21,466 bases of DNA from Nitrospirota bacterium. Lineage in GTDB: Bacteria > Nitrospirota > Thermodesulfovibrionia > Thermodesulfovibrionales > Dissulfurispiraceae. This document shows, piece after piece, positions 8,178-15,036 of the stretch. The stretch spans positions 1 to 21,466 of the forward strand of contig JBFMCP010000047.1 of NCBI GenBank assembly GCA_040754455.1. The letters run 5' to 3'. The notes beneath the pieces were generated by a model, which searched no databases, was not told the origin of the DNA, and saw only the letters and a list, made by a program, of their open reading frames with translations. Position numbers and translations under genes: made by a program. Every line of letters starts with the position of its first letter. Position 1 is the first letter of the stretch.

Positions 8178-9050
8178 CTACGGCAACTGTTTGATTTTCT
8201 CGACCAAGTACTTTCTGAAGTCTTCCGACAGCTCCCTGTTTTTCAGTGCGAAATCAACAGTGGCTTTCAGGTAGCCCAGCTTGTCACCGGCATCGTATCG
8301 GTTACCTTTTATAAGATAACCGTAAATCACCCTCCGGTTCAACAACTCTTTCAATGCATCCGTCAACTGGATCTCGCCTCCTGCTCCGGGCTTCTGTTTC
8401 TCAAGGATATCAAAAATGTCCGTGGTCAGAATGTACCTTCCGATAATGGCCAGATTGGAAGGCGCCTCTTCGGCCTTCGGCTTTTCAATAAGGTTCTTTA
8501 TTCGATACACATCGCCGTCGAGAACGCCGTCGATAACGCCATAACGGTGCACATCTGCGGTAGGGACTTCTTCGAGGGCGATGACCGGACACTTCAATTC
8601 ATCGTAGACTCTGATCATCTCCTTGAGGAGTGCATAATCGGGATCGACTACGTCATCGCTGAGGATCACCGCAAAAGGCTCGTCCTTCACAAAGGGCTGG
8701 GCACAGAGAATCGCATGGCCGAGTCCCAGCGCGACCCTCTGGCGGATATAGGCAAAGCTGATCTGGTTCAGCTTATTGATCTCATCGAGGAGTTTCTTCT
8801 TCCCGGAATTCCTCAGCTTTTCTTCGAGCTCGGAGGCGGTATCAAAGTGATCCTCTATAGCCCTCTTGTGCTTTCCCGTAATCACTATGAACTCCTCAAT
8901 GCCGCAGGAGATGGCCTCTTCAACGGCATATTGGATCAGCGGCTTATCGACAATGGGCATCATCTCCTTCGGAGACGCCTTTGTTGCGGGGAGGAAGCGC
9001 GTGCCGAGACCGGCTGCGGGAAAGATCGCCTTTTTTATTGTCTTTTTCAT
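8178..9050 (-). CDS. galU: UTP-glucose-1-phosphate uridylyltransferase
   Basis: KAIFPAAGLGTRFLPATKASPKEM, LGLGHAI, IEKP, GEIQLTDAL. Start moved to ATG 9050 (GAGG upstream) because the longer ORF runs through the tRNA. Confidence 0.96.
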   Translation of the reverse strand: MKKTIKKAIFPAAGLGTRFLPATKASPKEMMPIVDKPLIQYAVEEAISCGIEEFIVITGKHKRAIEDHFDTASELEEKLRNSGKKKLLDEINKLNQISFAYIRQRVALGLGHAILCAQPFVKDEPFAVILSDDVVDPDYALLKEMIRVYDELKCPVIALEEVPTADVHRYGVIDGVLDGDVYRIKNLIEKPKAEEAPSNLAIIGRYILTTDIFDILEKQKPGAGGEIQLTDALKELLNRRVIYGYLIKGNRYDAGDKLGYLKATVDFALKNRELSEDFRKYLVEKIKQLP

Positions 9051-9087
9051 TGCGGTACCTCGCTGCGTTGTTGTCTGTGAGAGAGCG

Positions 9088-9174
9088 TGGTGCCGGAGAC
9101 GAGACTCGAACTCGTACGAAACCAGGTTTCGAGGGATTTTAAGTCCCTTGCGTCTGCCATTCCGCCACTCCGGC
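9088..9174 (-). tRNA. tRNA-Leu (anticodon TAA), CCA encoded
   Basis: Acceptor stem GCCGGAG/CTCCGGC then A-CCA; anticodon arm AGGGA-CTTAAAA-TCCCT; long variable arm CGAAAC-CTG-GTTTCG; T arm ACGAG-TTCGAGT-CTCGT; 87 nt. Confidence 0.97.
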
Positions 9175-9231
9175 ATGCATGTTGTGCATGCGTTCCAAGA
9201 AATCAGGACAAAAAATATATACTACATAAAT

Positions 9232-9260
9232 AAGATACTAAAAAACCACTGAAAGTGCAA
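9232..9260 (-). promoter_or_regulatory. Putative sigma70 promoter for the tRNA-Leu-galU operon
   Basis: TTGCAC-N17-TATCTT on the - strand in an AT-rich stretch upstream of the tRNA. Confidence 0.6.
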
Positions 9261-9331
9261 CTTAAAACCCTGCATCTCCGTCCATGGAATATACCTGGAA
9301 AAGAGGTGTCCGCGACCATTCCCCGCGATGG

Positions 9332-9340
9332 TGGTATAAT
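9332..9340 (+). promoter_or_regulatory. Putative extended -10 promoter for tldD
   Basis: TGgTATAAT about 57 nt before the ATG; SD GGGAGG precedes the start. Confidence 0.5.
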
Positions 9341-9396
9341 CAGAATGAGGTGGAGCACCCCTTTTTACGGGGGAATGACAACGGGAGGTCTATACG

Positions 9397-10782
9397 ATGG
9401 TCGATGCGGAGCTTCTGCAGCGGATCTTGAAAAAAACCCTCGCACGGGGCGGAGAGTACGCCGATATTTATGTCGAGCACCGGCGCACCTCGACGGTACA
9501 GCTCGACGACAACAGGATAGAAAAGATCATCTCAGGATCCCACTCCGGGATCGGCATACGCCTTATTTATGATAAAAAGACAGCCTACGCGTACAGCAAT
9601 GATTTTTCCGAAGGCACTCTCATGGATCTTGCCGCAGCGGTCAGCAAAGCAGCGGCAGGCGGCGAAACGGATCGCACCATCAGCATGAAGAAACGTGCGC
9701 CCGAAACGACCTTCACGATACGAACGCCTCCCGACACGGTCCCCCTCTCCGCTAAGATCGCCCTTGTGCAGAAAGGGAATGAAGCGGCGCGCGCGTTCGA
9801 TCCGAAGATCAAACAGGCGACCGTTACCTACAGGGACTCCCGACAGAACGTCATCATCGTCACTTCGGAAGGGAACCTTGTCGAGGACGAGCGGACGCAT
9901 ACCCTCGGGCTCGTACAGGTCATCGCCGTTGACGGCACTGCAATTCAGACCGGATATGAGCCGGTCGGAGGACTCATCGGCTTCGAATTGTTCGAAGAGA
10001 ATCCGCTCGATGCCATTGCGCTCAAGGCCGCCCGCAGAGCGGTTATGATGCTGAGCGCACGACGCGCACCGGGAGGAAGAATGCCTGTTGTTATCTCCTC
10101 GGAAGCCGGCGGCACGATGATCCACGAGGCGATCGGTCACGGACTTGAGGCGGATCTCGCCCAGCAGGGTCTCTCCGTGTATTCCCGGAAGGTGGGCCAA
10201 CAGGTCGCTTCTCCGGCAATCACCGTTATTGATGATGCAACGCTCCCCAACAAGAGGGGCTCGTTCAGCTTTGACGATGAGGGGACGCCATCGAGGAGAA
10301 ACGTGCTCGTAAAGGACGGCATTCTCCTCGGGTATATGTATGATACGTACACTGCGCTCGTTGACCGTACTCTCTCGACTGGCAACGGCAGGAGGGAGTC
10401 CTACGAGCACAAGCCCATTCCCCGCATGACCAATACCTTTATCGCCCCCGGCTTCCATTCCCCCGACGAGGTCATTCGGTCGGTCCCCCGGGGGCTTCTG
10501 GTGAAGAAGATGGGCGGAGGGCAGGTCAATACGGTGACCGGAGATTTCGTCTTTGATGTGCAGGAAGGATACCTCATCGAAAACGGCAGCATCCTCGAAC
10601 CGGTGCGAGAAGCGACGCTGGTAGGGAACGGCCCGACGGTACTGCAGTCGATCGATATGGTCGCCTCTGACCTGGGCTTTTCCATAGGGACCTGCGGCAA
10701 GGACGCACAGGGGGCCCCCGTGTCTGATGCCATGCCGACCCTCAGAATCCCCGAGATGGTGGTGGGGGGAGAAGTGAAATAA
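9397..10782 (+). CDS. tldD: TldD metalloprotease (TldD/PmbA family, catalytic type)
   Basis: YADIYVE, HEAIGHGLEAD (HExxxH), FDDEGTP, TGNGRRESY, PRMTNT, GTCGK. Confidence 0.93.
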   Translation: MVDAELLQRILKKTLARGGEYADIYVEHRRTSTVQLDDNRIEKIISGSHSGIGIRLIYDKKTAYAYSNDFSEGTLMDLAAAVSKAAAGGETDRTISMKKRAPETTFTIRTPPDTVPLSAKIALVQKGNEAARAFDPKIKQATVTYRDSRQNVIIVTSEGNLVEDERTHTLGLVQVIAVDGTAIQTGYEPVGGLIGFELFEENPLDAIALKAARRAVMMLSARRAPGGRMPVVISSEAGGTMIHEAIGHGLEADLAQQGLSVYSRKVGQQVASPAITVIDDATLPNKRGSFSFDDEGTPSRRNVLVKDGILLGYMYDTYTALVDRTLSTGNGRRESYEHKPIPRMTNTFIAPGFHSPDEVIRSVPRGLLVKKMGGGQVNTVTGDFVFDVQEGYLIENGSILEPVREATLVGNGPTVLQSIDMVASDLGFSIGTCGKDAQGAPVSDAMPTLRIPEMVVGGEVK

Positions 10783-10862
10783 AAGCAAAGATCAAAAATA
10801 AAAAATCAAAATAAAGGAACTCCTTATTTTTAAATTTTTCTCTTTGTATTTTTATCTCTTAA
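10783..10862. repeat. AT-rich mirrored heptamer array, probable terminator of tldD
   Basis: AAGCAAA GATCAAA AATAAAA AATCAAA, then a central ATAAAGGAACTCCTTAT hairpin, then T-rich 7-periodic units. Confidence 0.55.
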
Positions 10863-10863
10863 G

Positions 10864-10958
10864 TGTGGTAAAATTCCTACAGCATCGCAATTATCCTACA
10901 CTTCCCGCTACTGAACCTATTGATTCCATTATATTTTATTAATGGCACACTAATTGCA
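10864..10958 (+). promoter_or_regulatory. Sigma54 (-24/-12) promoter of lpxC with candidate enhancer sites
   Basis: TGGCAC-ACTAA-TTGCA at 10943-10958. Upstream are TGTGGTAAAATTCCTACA (10864-10881) and a second site ending TCCTACA (to 10900), with an IHF-like AATCAA-TAGG-TTC on the - strand between them and the promoter. Confidence 0.75.
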
Positions 10959-10974
10959 ATGCCATTATAATCTT

Positions 10975-11859
10975 ATGAGACTTCAACGGACAATAAAAAA
11001 AGAGGTTGAGTTCAGCGGCATCGGTCTGCATACCGGAAGGCCTGCAGCAGCAAAGCTTAAACCCGCTGCCCGCGATACCGGCATTATTTTTTACCGGATC
11101 GATAAAGGCGCCATTATCCGGGTAAACATCGCTTCGGTGATAGACACTGCCTTTGCTACAACCCTTGGGTTTGACGGTGTTAAAGTGAGGACCGTCGAGC
11201 ACCTCCTTGCAGCTGCAGCCGGTCTCGGCATTGATAATCTGCTCATTGAGGTGGATGGACCTGAAATTCCCATTCTCGACGGCAGCTCTATGGATCTCAC
11301 CGGCCTCATTCTCGATGCTGGAATAGCGAAACAGGGAAAGCAGCGTCCGTTCCTCAAAATCACGAAACCCGTGGTGTACGAGGATACCCATTCACGTGTT
11401 GTAGCCCTTCCTTACGACGGCATGCGCATCTCCTATTCCATACATTTCAATCATCCTTTTCTCCGGCATCAGGAATTAACGTTAGATATCAATGAAAAAA
11501 CCTTTGTCGAGGAGATCGCACCGGCACGGACCTTCGGCTTTCTCCGGGATGTGGAGATGCTGAGGGCGAACGGCCTGGCAAAAGGAGGCTCACTCGAAAA
11601 CGCAATTGTTGTCGGAGACAAGGGGATCATGAATGCCGGCGGCCTCAGATTCGAAGATGAATTTGTCAGACATAAAGTCCTTGATACTATTGGGGATATG
11701 TCCATTCTCGGGCTTCCCATTCAAGGCCATCTCCTGCTCGAGAAGTCGGGACATACCGCCAATATACGTTTTTTGAAGAAACTTCTCTCTTCTCCGGATT
11801 GCTACAGCATCGTCTCGGAAGTTGACCTTTTGGACAACCACGTTTTAAACTATAGATAA
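10975..11859 (+). CDS. lpxC: UDP-3-O-acyl-N-acetylglucosamine deacetylase
   Basis: QRTIK, GIGLHTG, TVEHLL, EIPILDGS, ARTFGF, GGSLENAIV, HKVLDTIGD, SGH. Start set at ATG 10975. Confidence 0.97.
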   Translation: MRLQRTIKKEVEFSGIGLHTGRPAAAKLKPAARDTGIIFYRIDKGAIIRVNIASVIDTAFATTLGFDGVKVRTVEHLLAAAAGLGIDNLLIEVDGPEIPILDGSSMDLTGLILDAGIAKQGKQRPFLKITKPVVYEDTHSRVVALPYDGMRISYSIHFNHPFLRHQELTLDINEKTFVEEIAPARTFGFLRDVEMLRANGLAKGGSLENAIVVGDKGIMNAGGLRFEDEFVRHKVLDTIGDMSILGLPIQGHLLLEKSGHTANIRFLKKLLSSPDCYSIVSEVDLLDNHVLNYR

Positions 11860-11860
11860 C

Positions 11861-11930
11861 AAAAAAGAGGGATACCCAAAAACTCAATCCTCGGCTTCAA
11901 TTTGTCTTTTTGGGTATCCCTAAATTTTTT
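11861..11930. terminator. Bidirectional terminator between lpxC and the convergent unit
   Basis: Perfect 15-bp IR AGGGATACCCAAAAA (11868-11882) / TTTTTGGGTATCCCT (11907-11921), 24-nt loop, flanked by A and T runs. Confidence 0.7.
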
Positions 11931-11950
11931 ACGGTCTACAACAGCATCAC

Positions 11951-12019
11951 TTATTTCTTCTTTGCAGTCTTCTTTGCAGCGGTCTTCTTCTTTGCAGCAG
12001 CCTTTTTTGCAGCAGCCAT
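11951..12019 (-). CDS. 22-aa Lys/Ala-rich basic micropeptide MAAAKKAAAKKKTAAKKTAKKK (histone H1 tail-like)
   Basis: ATG 12019 to TAA 11951; strong SD AAAGGGGGTG just upstream; codon-phased GCT/GCA/AAG repeats with synonymous variation; followed by a terminator. Too short for the ORF track. Confidence 0.75.
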   Translation of the reverse strand: MAAAKKAAAKKKTAAKKTAKKK

Positions 12020-12084
12020 TCTTTTCACCCCCTTTCATTCCCGCCCTCTTTATACACAACAACACCGGCGGGTACTGTTCTTCG

Positions 12085-12630
12085 CTACACTCTTCCCAAG
12101 AGAGTAATTCTCTTCTCGGAAAGAATCCTCTTCACATTCGAATCCTTCTTTTTCTTCAGCTTGTACTCGGACTCCTCGATCACCGTGCAATTTATCTTCT
12201 TGCCGAACTTTCTCTCGATAGCCTGCAGGCCCATGAGCAATGCAGGAGTGGATGGTCCAATGACAAACAGATCGACAATCGAAGGATCTTCACCCTCAGC
12301 GTAGGGACCGTAGATAAAAGCGGTCTTGATATCATTCGCCCTCAGGAGACTCTTCAGGGCGCCGGGCAGTCCCAGGGATTTTGCGATCAGATCTTTCAGC
12401 TCAGAGAACAGGGGGGATTCGCTGTTGGCCTGGAAGTATTTCAGGTTGGCGACCTTCTCGCTGACAACGATGCCCATCTCTTCGAGCCGGTCGAGCTCCC
12501 GTTTGACTCCCGACGGGTTTTTCCTCAGCAGCTTTGCTATCTCCCGCACATAAAATTTTTCATCTGGGCTGTTCAGCAGGAGCGACAGCACCTCGGCTCG
12601 TATCGATGATGAAAATAGGTTTCTCAGCAT
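12085..12630 (-). CDS. Winged-helix DNA-binding domain fused to a minimal nucleotidyltransferase-fold domain (degenerate catalytic motif)
   Basis: N-terminal LFSSSIRAEVLSLLL...FYVREIAKLL...VKRELDRLEEMGIV...KYFQAN (wHTH); C-terminal AFIYGPYAEG...SIVDLFVIG. Start moved to ATG 12630 because of AGGA upstream and the promoter position. Confidence 0.8.
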   Translation of the reverse strand: MLRNLFSSSIRAEVLSLLLNSPDEKFYVREIAKLLRKNPSGVKRELDRLEEMGIVVSEKVANLKYFQANSESPLFSELKDLIAKSLGLPGALKSLLRANDIKTAFIYGPYAEGEDPSIVDLFVIGPSTPALLMGLQAIERKFGKKINCTVIEESEYKLKKKKDSNVKRILSEKRITLLGRV

Positions 12631-12649
12631 TCCTTTTCCTGTTATTGAA

Positions 12650-12678
12650 ACTATAAACGATAATATTACATTTGTCAA
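12650..12678 (-). promoter_or_regulatory. Near-consensus sigma70 promoter of the wHTH-NTase gene
   Basis: TTGACA-N17-TATAGT on the - strand, 20 nt before ATG 12630. Confidence 0.8.
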
Positions 12679-12802
12679 CAATAAAATTAAAAAAAAGAAC
12701 AAAAGTTTATTTTTTGTGAACATTCATCTTTTTAGAACATTTGTTCATTAAAAAACACCATTCGTTTCCTCTTCTCAATTCTCGGCTCGGTATGTGGGAT
12801 CT

Positions 12803-13417
12803 TTAATAGCGGAAGATATCGAGAGCGCCCTCTCTGAGGACGACGGGGAAAGTTCCGGTTGCATCAACAATCGTTGATGGTACTTTACTCTCCGTTTCAC
12901 CACCGTCAACGATCAGATCGACGGCGGCGTCAAAGTAGCTGGCCACTGCAGCCGCGGTTGCGGCAGGGGGATGGGATGAGGGGTTGGCGCTCGTCGCGGT
13001 AAAGGGGAAGGGTACGGCCCTCGCAAGCTGCAGGGCGAAGGACTCGCCGGGGATTCTCACTGCAACCTTGCCTCCGGCAACAATGTATTCCGAGAGTCCG
13101 GGACGGGCGGTGAAGAGAATCGTCAGAGGGCCGGGCCAGAATCGTTCCATGAGCTGCCGCGCGGTATCGGTGACCGCTGTGGTGAGCAGAGAAAGCTGCT
13201 CAACGTTCCCGATGATCAGCGGCATCGTCTTTTCCTTCGGCCGCCGCTTGATAGTGAAAATCCGCTCTAAGGCCTGCACATTGTCATAGCGCGCGCCAAG
13301 GCCGTAGAAGGTCTCCGTAGGGTAGGCGATAACCCCCCCCTGCTCGAGTAGTGACACCCCTCTGGCGATCAGTTCTTCGCAATTGTCCTCAGTAAGCCTC
13401 AGAAGCATATATTCCAT
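12803..13417 (-). CDS. tsaC: L-threonylcarbamoyladenylate synthase (YrdC/Sua5 N-domain only)
   Basis: YPTETFYGLG, IKRRP, FWPGPLT, VAVRIP, TATSANPS, PSTIVD. The start may be ATG 13408. Confidence 0.93.
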   Translation of the reverse strand: MEYMLLRLTEDNCEELIARGVSLLEQGGVIAYPTETFYGLGARYDNVQALERIFTIKRRPKEKTMPLIIGNVEQLSLLTTAVTDTARQLMERFWPGPLTILFTARPGLSEYIVAGGKVAVRIPGESFALQLARAVPFPFTATSANPSSHPPAATAAAVASYFDAAVDLIVDGGETESKVPSTIVDATGTFPVVLREGALDIFRY

Positions 13418-13565
13418 TATATGCTAAATTCCCTTCCCGTTTTGTGCATCCCGGAATATATCCACTAAGGGAAGAGAGATGGGCGTCCGGCACGGCGCCT
13501 CCCTCCCTGCCTTCATCGCACTTGTCCCGTTATGATGACTTTGCCCTGGGTTCGCCTGAGGCTCG

Positions 13566-13595
13566 TTGCAAAGGAGGGCGACATCCGTGTATAAT
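13566..13595 (+). promoter_or_regulatory. Candidate sigma70 promoter upstream of the riboswitch
   Basis: TTGCAA-N18-TATAAT. Confidence 0.4.
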
Positions 13596-13768
13596 AGGTC
13601 TGCTGTAGTATGGCAGTAAACGGACGTTGATAGATCATGCAGTCTATTCCTTCTCATCGTTGTAATGATGCACCCCGTTGTTCCTCCGCCTCTGATAGCA
13701 GCGACCATGCCTTTTCAGCTCTCTGCCATACACGCAGAATGAGATCTTTGACAGCATAAAAGCATCTT

Positions 13769-13862
13769 GTTTCCGAAAGGGTAAACTCTGGGCAACCAGA
13801 GGACACAAAGCTACGGGTCCGCCATGTGGGGTAGAGAGGTGGACAGCCGGGCTGCCGAAGAA
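13769..13862 (+). ncRNA. c-di-GMP-I (GEMM) riboswitch aptamer
   Basis: AGGGTAAAC, P2 CTCTGG-GCAA-CCAGAG (GNRA loop), GACACAAAGC, P3 with CGG/CCG and GTCCGCC/GGTGGAC, closing AGCCGGGCTGCCGAA. All hallmark GEMM elements are present in order. Confidence 0.92.
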
Positions 13863-13890
13863 TCAGGCTCATCTGCCGCGTACCTTCCCG

Positions 13891-13922
13891 AAAGCCTGCT
13901 TCCCTCAGGGAACAGGCTTTTT
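13891..13922 (+). terminator. Intrinsic terminator forming the riboswitch expression platform
   Basis: AAAGCCTG(C)TTCCC-TCA-GGGAA-CAGGCTTTTT. An upstream CAGGCT (13864-13869) can pair with the 5' arm as an antiterminator. Confidence 0.8.
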
Positions 13923-13953
13923 GCTGCTAGAAGAAAGGGAGGAATAAACGGCA

Positions 13954-15036
13954 GTGAAGCTTTTCAAAGAAGTAACCAACAGCATCCTTCGTCATGTTTC
14001 GCGCAAAGAGTGCGGTAGACATCGCCACGGGCAGTCGGACCTGTTCGTCCCCGGGAAGAGGCATACCGGTCTCCTCCCAAAGACAATCGCACTTTTCCTT
14101 ACCCTGACGCTGCTAATCATTCAGGCAGGACCGGCAAAGGCCGTTGTTCGGGAACAGGAGCCTACAGCGCTCAGGAGTGCCACCGTGGACGGAGCATCGG
14201 GCAGGGCGGTCGACGCTATCGCCGGTTTCTCTGACGGCAGCGTCCCGTTCGGTGCGCGACTCTATATTCTGGCCGTCGGCATCAACAAGTATGAGAATCC
14301 GAAATATACGCTCAGGTATGGAAGGTCTGATGCGGAGACCTTTGTTCAAGCGGTGGAGCAGCACGGCAAGAACGTCTTCAGCCGCATCATTACGCAGACC
14401 ATCTATGATACACAGGCAAACAGACGCAATATAGAAGCCGCCTTCAACAGGATCATCGCAGAGGCGCAGCCCGAGGACGTGTTCGTGTTCTACTATGCAG
14501 GACACGGTGTCCTGAGCAAGGGAGACACCTCCGACAAGCCCGAATTCTATATGGCATTGACCGATGTGACCAGCCTAACCGGCGAGAATGCAATGTTCGA
14601 GGAGCGGGGGCTTTCGGCGCTGCTCCTCAGGAATTTAAGCTTCAGGATCAAGGCACAGAAACAGCTGCTGGTGCTCGATGCCTGCCATTCAGGAGGAGCG
14701 CTGGAGAGATTTGCTGCTGAAGGCCCCGCTGATGGGTACACTCCTCTGCAACTCGGGAAAAGCGCCGGCATCACCGTATTGGCGGCAGCAGGCACCGACC
14801 AGCCCGCCACCGAGTTCAAGCAGCTTGGCCATGGGGTGTTCACCTATGCCCTTGTCAAAGGGCTCGGAGGAGAGGCGGACAGAGGCGACGCTCCCGACGG
14901 AAGGATTACGGTTCGTGAGCTTGAGGCATATTTGAACGAACAGGTGCCTGCACTCATCAGCCGCTATAAAGGAAAGGCGCAATCGCCGAACAGCTTTGTC
15001 AGAGGAAGCGATTTCACCCTCGGCGCAAAACAGTAA
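13954..15036 (+). CDS. Caspase-like (peptidase C14) protein with predicted signal peptide
   Basis: LYILAVGINKY, YYAGHG (His), LDACHSG (Cys), GHGVFTYAL, DGRITVREL; hydrophobic IALFLTLTLLII followed by AKA; GTG start with GGGAGG upstream. Confidence 0.9.
   Translation: MKLFKEVTNSILRHVSRKECGRHRHGQSDLFVPGKRHTGLLPKTIALFLTLTLLIIQAGPAKAVVREQEPTALRSATVDGASGRAVDAIAGFSDGSVPFGARLYILAVGINKYENPKYTLRYGRSDAETFVQAVEQHGKNVFSRIITQTIYDTQANRRNIEAAFNRIIAEAQPEDVFVFYYAGHGVLSKGDTSDKPEFYMALTDVTSLTGENAMFEERGLSALLLRNLSFRIKAQKQLLVLDACHSGGALERFAAEGPADGYTPLQLGKSAGITVLAAAGTDQPATEFKQLGHGVFTYALVKGLGGEADRGDAPDGRITVRELEAYLNEQVPALISRYKGKAQSPNSFVRGSDFTLGAKQ

Follow-up and report, generated by a model that had tools for sequence, protein, structure and literature searches.

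The C-terminal tail of eukaryotic histone H1 is presumed to neutralise the charge of DNA as a disordered segment. Bacterial H1-like lysine/alanine proteins are a known kind and include chlamydial Hc2/HctB (PF07382, NF038052), for which one report gives a length of 165-237 amino acids (aa) (PMC2848022), AlgP of Pseudomonas, which is reported to act on polyphosphate granules (PMC9239181), and the Burkholderia-type H1-like family NF038053. Similarly, lysine-rich PAKKA/AAKK tails of mycobacterial HupB/MDP1 and of Ku appear in a DNA-binding context in two further reports (PMC5974015, PMC3553676). A second point of comparison is formed by the type VII toxin-antitoxin (TA) pairs, in which a HEPN protein is paired with a minimal nucleotidyltransferase (MNT). 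Here, we describe a micropeptide gene of 22 codons in a Nitrospirota bacterium of the family Dissulfurispiraceae, which lies in a stretch of 21,466 nt (positions 1 to 21,466 of contig JBFMCP010000047.1; the window) downstream of a gene for a winged helix-turn-helix (wHTH) protein with a degenerate MNT-like domain, and we suggest that its lysine/alanine-rich (K/A) product may be a free-standing relative in kind of the tails listed above.

Comparison of loci across the phylum identifies this 22-codon open reading frame (ORF) as a real, strongly conserved and unannotated protein-coding gene. Loci were gathered around orthologues of the upstream wHTH protein, and the downstream DNA was then inspected for a Shine-Dalgarno (SD) sequence followed by a K/A ORF. 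Such an SD and ORF are present at the syntenic position (i) in 28/28 informative loci of relatives from the same family or order, in which the upstream protein is 60-84% identical among the 29 loci and the 29th locus (L021) ends at a contig end, (ii) in all 78 loci with downstream DNA from named metagenome-assembled genomes (MAGs), and (iii) in 20/20 more distant loci across the phylum, where the ORF is Lys-rich and the SD is of the GAAAGGGGGTG type. The MAG set comprises 80 named loci, nearly all labelled Nitrospirota, Nitrospirae, Thermodesulfovibrionales or Dissulfurispiraceae, two of which (L110, L114) stop after the wHTH gene; 76 of the 78 were found by the first filter and L043 and L055 were added as filter errors. 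The distant set is made up of 7 of 8 same-class and 13 of 67 other-class genomes having the wHTH gene, which itself is present in 130 of 301 genomes sampled across the phylum. The ATG, SD, frame and stop are retained in every informative locus.

The substitution pattern points in the same direction. Among 176 pairs of equal length, pre-selected at at least 70% peptide identity, the synonymous and non-synonymous differences (pS and pN) are 0.50 and 0.061, giving a pN/pS of 0.12; and in 264 pairs taken without a peptide-identity filter the differences at codon positions 1, 2 and 3 number 1154, 719 and 2541. The peptide is held while the nucleotides drift, with synonymous sites near saturation, and we therefore conclude from these alignments that protein-level selection acts on the micropeptide. 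A preliminary description of the window had argued for such selection from codon-phased repeats with synonymous variation, had proposed to look in relatives for an SD and ORF kept at the same place and had expected annotation pipelines to miss the gene. The repeats are indeed codon-phased (GCT GCT GCA AAR AAG etc.); the pN/pS value and third-position excess, the counts above and the databases bear it out on all three. An exact look-up of 10 peptides, GTG-extended and long forms included, found none of them (0/10) in a collection of ~15 billion predicted proteins, in agreement with pipelines missing the gene.

The peptide of the window, MAAAKKAAAKKKTAAKKTAKKK, is of Lys, Ala and Thr composition with 10 Lys and zero acidic residues, as originally described, and has a net charge of about +10; its ORF runs on the minus strand, which had been left unstated. 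This composition is a property of the family. Across 72 unique orthologues (1681 codons) Lys accounts for 747 residues (44%), Ala for 574 (34%), Thr for 181 (11%) and Pro for 82 (5%), and the same codons contain no Arg, no Glu, no aromatic residue and two Asp; the consensus in the peptide alignment A1 is MA(A)TKKAxAKK...AKKTAKKK. Length, by comparison, is free: at the syntenic locus it spans 14-54 aa within the order and reaches 67, 102 and ~150 aa in class-level relatives. In six of the distant same-class loci the peptide ORF follows directly after the wHTH gene. In two of these six, L117 and L118, the peptides have grown to 102 and 67 aa by tandem KKKTTA/KKTAA units, a clear case of repeat-length evolution, and one distant locus encodes a K/A/P-rich protein of ~150 aa with a Cys-rich start; in these distant loci repeat expansion always preserves the K/A/T composition. 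In the 13 other-class loci the peptide (e.g. MAAKKKAAKKKATKKKATKKK) is encoded ~50 nt after an intervening gene. Three of the 29 relative loci and two of the named-MAG loci have the ORF twice in tandem, the second copy having an SD to itself. Length plasticity and tandem copies fit a function that depends on charge and not on a fold.

Several variants of the peptide were observed in passing. In two other families of the phylum (L127, L128, L129 and L130) the syntenic peptides end in Cys (...KKKKC, ...KKKKRC, ...KKGKC), which could serve in dimerisation, metal binding or lipidation, and L129 and L130 have a second tandem K-rich ORF. The genome of the window also encodes two K/A/P-rich paralogues with a strong SD, one of 42 aa with an N-terminal C-x-x-C on contig C61 (L032:1438-1566, plus strand) and one of 59 aa on contig C11 (L033:1502-1681, minus strand); neither adjoins a wHTH-MNT gene.

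Set against the described proteins, the peptide shares with Hc2 the Lys/Ala/Thr-rich low-complexity repeats, the lack of a folded domain and the variation in repeat number, but is far shorter (22 aa, 14-54 in the order) and differs in phylum, gene context and a control region made of a hairpin and a 12-nt SD. Hc2 is the sole Pfam family that the long orthologues approach, with at most 28.5 bits for PF07382 against a cut-off of 40 and up to 23.6 bits for NF038052 against a cut-off of 135; the 22-aa and 25-aa peptides have no Pfam match and the 22-aa peptide has no NCBIfam match. With the H1 tail it has in common the K/A/P/T composition and the strong preference for Lys over Arg, but it is a bacterial, free-standing peptide of about one fifth of the H1 tail length and lacks the globular winged-helix H1/H5 domain, for which Pfam gave no match in the peptide and for which 22 aa leave no room. 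AlgP and the NF038053 proteins are likewise bacterial Lys/Ala/Pro-repeat proteins, yet far longer; NF038053 scores 21.2-21.6 bits in the long orthologues and 15.5 bits in the 59-aa paralogue against a cut-off of 80, and apart from Hc2 and this family no curated family is approached by these long forms. Finally, the tails of HupB/MDP1 and Ku use the same repeat vocabulary (KKAPAKK, AAKK), but are fused to folded domains while the Nitrospirota peptide is separate. No published description of the peptide, or of a K/A peptide gene linked to wHTH-MNT/HEPN genes, was found in a literature searchable as titles and abstracts and holding few subscription journals.

The gene is framed by control elements (Table 1), three of which had been recognised in the preliminary description: a strong ribosome-binding site, a CCCGCC/GGCGGG hairpin in the 65-nt spacer between the wHTH gene (TAG stop at 12087-12085) and the ATG at 12019, and a terminator with a 15-bp stem. 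All of them are where they had been placed, and the hairpin turns out to be more than incidental. The SD, with the core AAAGGGGGTG at 12035-12026, 6 nt from the ATG, can pair with the 16S 3' tail ...GATCACCTCCTTTCT (gene end ...GGATCACCTCCTTTCTAAGG) at 12 positions, 11 of them Watson-Crick and one G-U, as read in a same-family genome and in a genome of another class, the assembly of the window's own genome being without that part. GAAAGGRGGTGA is retained in nearly all orthologues and the perfect GAAAGGAGGTGA occurs in many. Of 79 unique upstream regions from orthologous loci, 75 have a stem of 5 bp or more (3 or more of them G-C) that stops 2-5 nt short of GAAAGG, where the hairpin sits in the window, while shuffled sequences would yield 19.5; for stems of 7 bp or more the numbers are 54 observed and 6.1 expected. 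These hairpins have 59 distinct 5' arm sequences, so that the structure is kept with covariation while the sequence is not.

The same count bears on what kind of element the inverted repeat is likely to be. We considered a DNA operator for the wHTH protein and rejected it: in all 14 aligned wHTH proteins (alignment A2) the residues G41, K43, R44, E45 and L46 of the winged-helix region are invariant, and 59 stem forms facing a partly invariant winged helix make an RNA element likelier than a protein operator. Thus, the conserved spacer hairpin is more likely an RNA structure. The 218 nt that reach from hairpin to terminator fold with a z of -3.45, and in this fold the SD and AUG region is nearly unpaired.

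On the 3' side, 71 of 79 unique downstream regions from orthologous loci have a terminator-like hairpin and a T-run after the ORF. In the window its arms are AGGGATACCCAAAAA (11921-11907) and TTTTTGGGTATCCCT (11882-11868), followed by CTTTTTTGTT. A plus-strand T-run sits directly after the lpxC stop and the terminator is therefore bidirectional; a simple terminator scan misses it because its loop is 24 nt long. Rfam returned only sub-threshold, hairpin-shaped miRNA matches here and no family at the curated threshold. As a separate observation, the terminator stems of L036-L115 fall into two sequence types, GGGAATACCC... (loop of 24-40 nt, the type of the window) and GGCTGGAGAA... (loop of 4 nt). 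Both persist although the wHTH proteins are only 66-88% identical to that of the window, which exceeds what a terminator needs, and the long loop may hold a further element.

Table 1. Coordinates of the micropeptide gene, its control elements and its neighbours in the window
Feature	Position	Strand	Details
Micropeptide gene, 22 aa, MAAAKKAAAKKKTAAKKTAKKK	11951..12019	minus	ATG 12019-12017, TAA stop 11953-11951
Extended SD, GAAAGGGGGTGA	12025..12036	minus	5 nt (AAAGA, 12024-12020) before ATG
Stem-loop, CCCGCC 12072-12067 / GGCGGG 12045-12040	12040..12072	minus	Ends 3 nt 5' of the SD; also present in the fold
Hairpin, 15-bp stem 11921-11907 / 11882-11868, T-runs on both strands	11858..11921		Bidirectional terminator common to the micropeptide gene and convergent lpxC
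lpxC	10954..11859	plus	Convergent, ends at the shared terminator; Pfam LpxC, E 4.5e-103
wHTH gene, 181 aa, ArsR-like winged helix and degenerate minimal-nucleotidyltransferase-like C-terminal domain	12085..12630	minus	Pfam HTH_5, 27.2 bits
Promoter-like site, TTGACA-17-TATAGT	12650..12678	minus	11/12 consensus matches; consensus match only

The neighbour that travels with the peptide gene is the wHTH gene. As listed, its ORF encodes 212 aa from 12723; however, its relatives align only from residue 32 on, 102 of the 120 best homologues are 181 aa long (under the name 'winged helix-turn-helix domain-containing protein') and a promoter-like site lies inside the supposed N-terminus, which is why the true start is probably the M at 12630 and 12631-12723 an over-extension. 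The C-terminal half of the window's protein has no Pfam match; full-length orthologues from other classes (41-48% identity) match Polbeta and NTP_transf_2 above cut-off, and the earlier label of a wHTH-nucleotidyltransferase was thus right by descent. Nucleotidyltransferases of the Pol-beta superfamily carry the catalytic motif GS...DxD. At the two carboxylate positions of this motif in alignment A2 the window has I/D and other orthologues have N/N, D/N or S/N (N/N or D/N in the Nitrospiria-type orthologues), and both positions are acidic in only 3 of 14 sequences. Given that the carboxylate pair is not conserved, catalysis is not what the wHTH-MNT family conserves.

In other Nitrospirota classes the arrangement recalls the HEPN-MNT TA pairs: there, the MNT gene has an overlapping HEPN gene directly after it, and PF18765 and PF05168 both score above cut-off. 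An overlapping gene lies between the wHTH and peptide genes in 13/13 other-class loci and was taken as HEPN from the ORFs; Pfam scans of four of these genes gave HEPN, three above cut-off and that of L127 weakly at 14.8 bits. The HEPN gene at L124:1154-1636 and its equivalents overlap the end of the wHTH-MNT gene. The Nitrospirota system departs from the TA pairs in that a winged helix is joined to the MNT, whose carboxylate pair is varied or lost, in that a K/A peptide gene always follows, and in that HEPN is absent in Thermodesulfovibrionales, the window included. HEPN RNases carry the motif Rx4-6H. The HEPN protein of L124 has no histidine anywhere and the inspected copy is thus probably without the usual RNase motif; RLARKSH in an f23 orthologue could fit. 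Judged by these motifs, both halves of the TA-like pair may be catalytically dead, the HEPN half as seen in the copy of L124.

The linkage between wHTH and peptide genes outlasts its surroundings. The flanking genes are TldD and LpxC on one side in Thermodesulfovibrionia, and a DEAD-box helicase, DivIC and a GH57 enzyme in a Nitrospiria-type family; because the flanks differ between classes while the module persists, it is the linkage itself that is conserved. Conversely, no K/A ORF was detected in four of four same-order genomes that lack the wHTH gene and are complete or nearly so, with three DNA patterns that did find the positive control; the pattern searches in G033, G134, G039 and G277 returned unrelated genes only. 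This suggests co-loss of the wHTH gene and the K/A ORF. A profile search with A1 misses the window's own peptide at E<=10, and its nil result in five wHTH-less genomes is uninformative.

Combining these data, we lean, somewhat more than evenly, towards a model in which the micropeptide is a non-specific polycation that coats DNA, RNA or polyphosphate. We favor this model because the composition, the roughly ten-fold freedom in length and the duplication are the traits of a disordered polycation that depends on charge density. A peptide without a fixed fold would coat and neutralise polyanions, DNA first and possibly RNA or polyphosphate, in the mode of the Lys/Ala/Pro-rich tails of H1, chlamydial Hc2, AlgP, mycobacterial HupB/MDP1 and Ku. 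Its gene would be the last cistron of a unit that starts with the wHTH protein, to which a HEPN partner is added in other classes, and the wHTH protein with its degenerate nucleotidyltransferase domain would be the likely transcriptional regulator of the unit. The 5' stem-loop before the 12-nt SD and the strong 3' terminator would give a stable and very efficiently initiated mini-mRNA, either processed from a longer transcript or separately started, and this two-hairpin mini-mRNA would let the peptide greatly outnumber the regulator. We infer that the peptide is highly expressed and binds polyanions, that its mRNA is processed and that the unit is controlled by the wHTH protein.

Several points weigh against this model. 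We likewise infer transcription, translation and abundance of the peptide from DNA, and codon adaptation as a proxy for expression lends no support: 9/9 Ala codons of the peptide are GCT or GCA, while GCG and GCC make up 61% of those in ribosomal-protein genes, counted on 21 codons only. The genome has five HU/IHF-family genes and so is not visibly short of nucleoid proteins. The preliminary description had likened the peptide to H1 tails and histone-like repeats; the composition is real, but what the peptide shares with H1, Hc2 and AlgP is composition, and no score reaches a curated cut-off. Sequence does not discriminate between DNA, RNA and polyphosphate as the target. Moreover, the relatives are non-independent samples, with an overlap between the set of relatives and that of named MAGs, and the co-absence rests on narrow DNA patterns.

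Among the alternatives, the peptide may be a dedicated partner of the wHTH-MNT(-HEPN) module, either as a basic DNA-binding tail acting in trans or as a toxic or effector third component derived from a HEPN-MNT TA pair. This would account for a gene pair or trio that stays together across the phylum while the flanks change and for the missing K/A ORF in the four wHTH-less genomes, and it is in line with known K/A-rich tails being normally fused to folded DNA-binding domains (PMC3553676, PMC5974015). However, a fused form was not encountered, 0/120 best wHTH homologues (proteins of up to 317 aa) being Lys-rich at the C-terminus; the HEPN of L124 without histidine argues against a working toxin, and the two longer K/A paralogues occur elsewhere in the genome without the module. 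Nucleotidylation of the peptide, which the preliminary description had raised in calling it a possible substrate of the upstream protein, is disfavoured by the non-conserved carboxylate pair. In total, we consider a dedicated partner unlikely. Alternatively, a tiny and very basic peptide with phylum-wide conservation and an extreme SD could be a ribosome- or rRNA-associated protein similar to bTHX, bS22 or proteins of bL36 size, all the more so as the same 10-mer SD precedes a 29-aa Arg/Lys-rich ORF that looks bS22-like. Lengths from 14 to ~150 aa and tandem copies are, however, hard to square with a fitted rRNA pocket, 1681 codons include no Arg and no aromatic residue, no ribosomal family of Pfam or NCBIfam matches and the locus lies outside any ribosomal gene cluster, which makes this quite unlikely. 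We conclude that the peptide is more probably a polyanion binder than a protein fitted into the ribosome or a substrate of the nucleotidyltransferase.

Two further explanations would do without a function of the peptide itself. A short ORF rich in Lys codons between structured RNA elements could be a regulatory or stabilising mini-cistron whose translation matters and whose product does not, for example by protecting the 3' end of the wHTH mRNA or by sensing Lys-tRNA. It is the amino acids that are conserved, with synonymous sites near saturation; repeat expansion always retains the K/A/T composition; and a terminator follows without a co-oriented gene, the next gene being convergent or class-dependent. 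We regard a mini-cistron of this kind as very improbable. A leader peptide or attenuator ORF was rejected for want of a regulated gene on the same strand, as the terminator stands directly after the ORF and is followed in the window by convergent lpxC; in another class DivIC is co-oriented after the terminator of the peptide gene. That there is no gene at all, but a non-coding RNA element or an ORF that arose by chance within a purine-rich repeat, might be argued from its absence from protein databases, from the opposite strand, which is also open (235-aa ORF at 11902..12609), and from the frequency of such ORFs: 88 ORFs of at least 20 aa overlap positions 9000-15000, so that one of 22 codons is by itself within chance. 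The micropeptide ORF stands out from chance because of its conservation and substitution pattern and not because of its length: ATG, SD, frame and stop persist in all informative loci, substitutions are skewed to the third codon position, and no Rfam family matches at the curated threshold. Thus, a chance ORF is scarcely credible.

Returning to the polyanion-binding model, what would be new is not the kind of protein but (i) a size of 14-29 aa in most genomes together with phylum-wide conservation, (ii) a conserved cassette of a hairpin and a 12-nt SD, (iii) the constant association with a degenerate wHTH-MNT(-HEPN) module and (iv) the lack of any entry in protein databases. Should the cells produce much of the peptide, then every annotation of this phylum, to which the nitrite-oxidising Nitrospira lineage and the sulfate-reducing Thermodesulfovibrionia belong, has overlooked an abundant polycation that shapes the nucleoid, RNA or polyphosphate; it is under the length limits of gene callers, and trypsin would destroy it. 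The locus bears on the number of very short conserved genes that have been overlooked, on the role of free H1-tail-like peptides in bacteria and on the question why catalytically degenerate HEPN/MNT modules are kept, and the combination of hairpin, 12-nt SD and terminator would represent a compact natural expression unit. The most far-reaching form of the model would be a phylum-wide Nitrospirota 'mini-protamine', the smallest known free-standing bacterial peptide coating the nucleoid or other polyanions (down to 14-22 residues), produced in large amounts from a mini-mRNA that has a hairpin cap and a 12-nt SD, at a dose set by a domesticated, catalytically dead HEPN-MNT pair turned winged-helix regulator. 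We hold this to be doubtful as a whole; if true, HEPN-MNT modules would have acquired a new regulatory use, and there would be reason to expect a class of abundant cell components that neither gene callers nor tryptic proteomics can see.

The extended SD is also found away from this locus. The 10-mer AAAGGRGGTG has 48 occurrences in the 3.27-Mb genome, about half of them before a start codon. One of these SDs precedes the Arg/Lys-rich ORF mentioned above, which presumably is bS22-like and which consists of 29 codons starting with GTG (MGNVVKWRKKKMRKHKHRKLRKRTRSQRR; contig C1, minus strand, offset 259102 of the reverse complement). The same extended SD stands before an ORF of 20 codons, Lys-rich and with a Cys-rich end (MTIKKVAKKAAMTCKCKGSC; contig C6, minus strand, offset 54008 of the reverse complement), which may be another unannotated micropeptide. 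In family f10 (L137 and L138) the extended SD stands before a gene of 134 aa that, judged by eye, lies between sulfate-adenylyltransferase-like and AprB-like ferredoxin ORFs.

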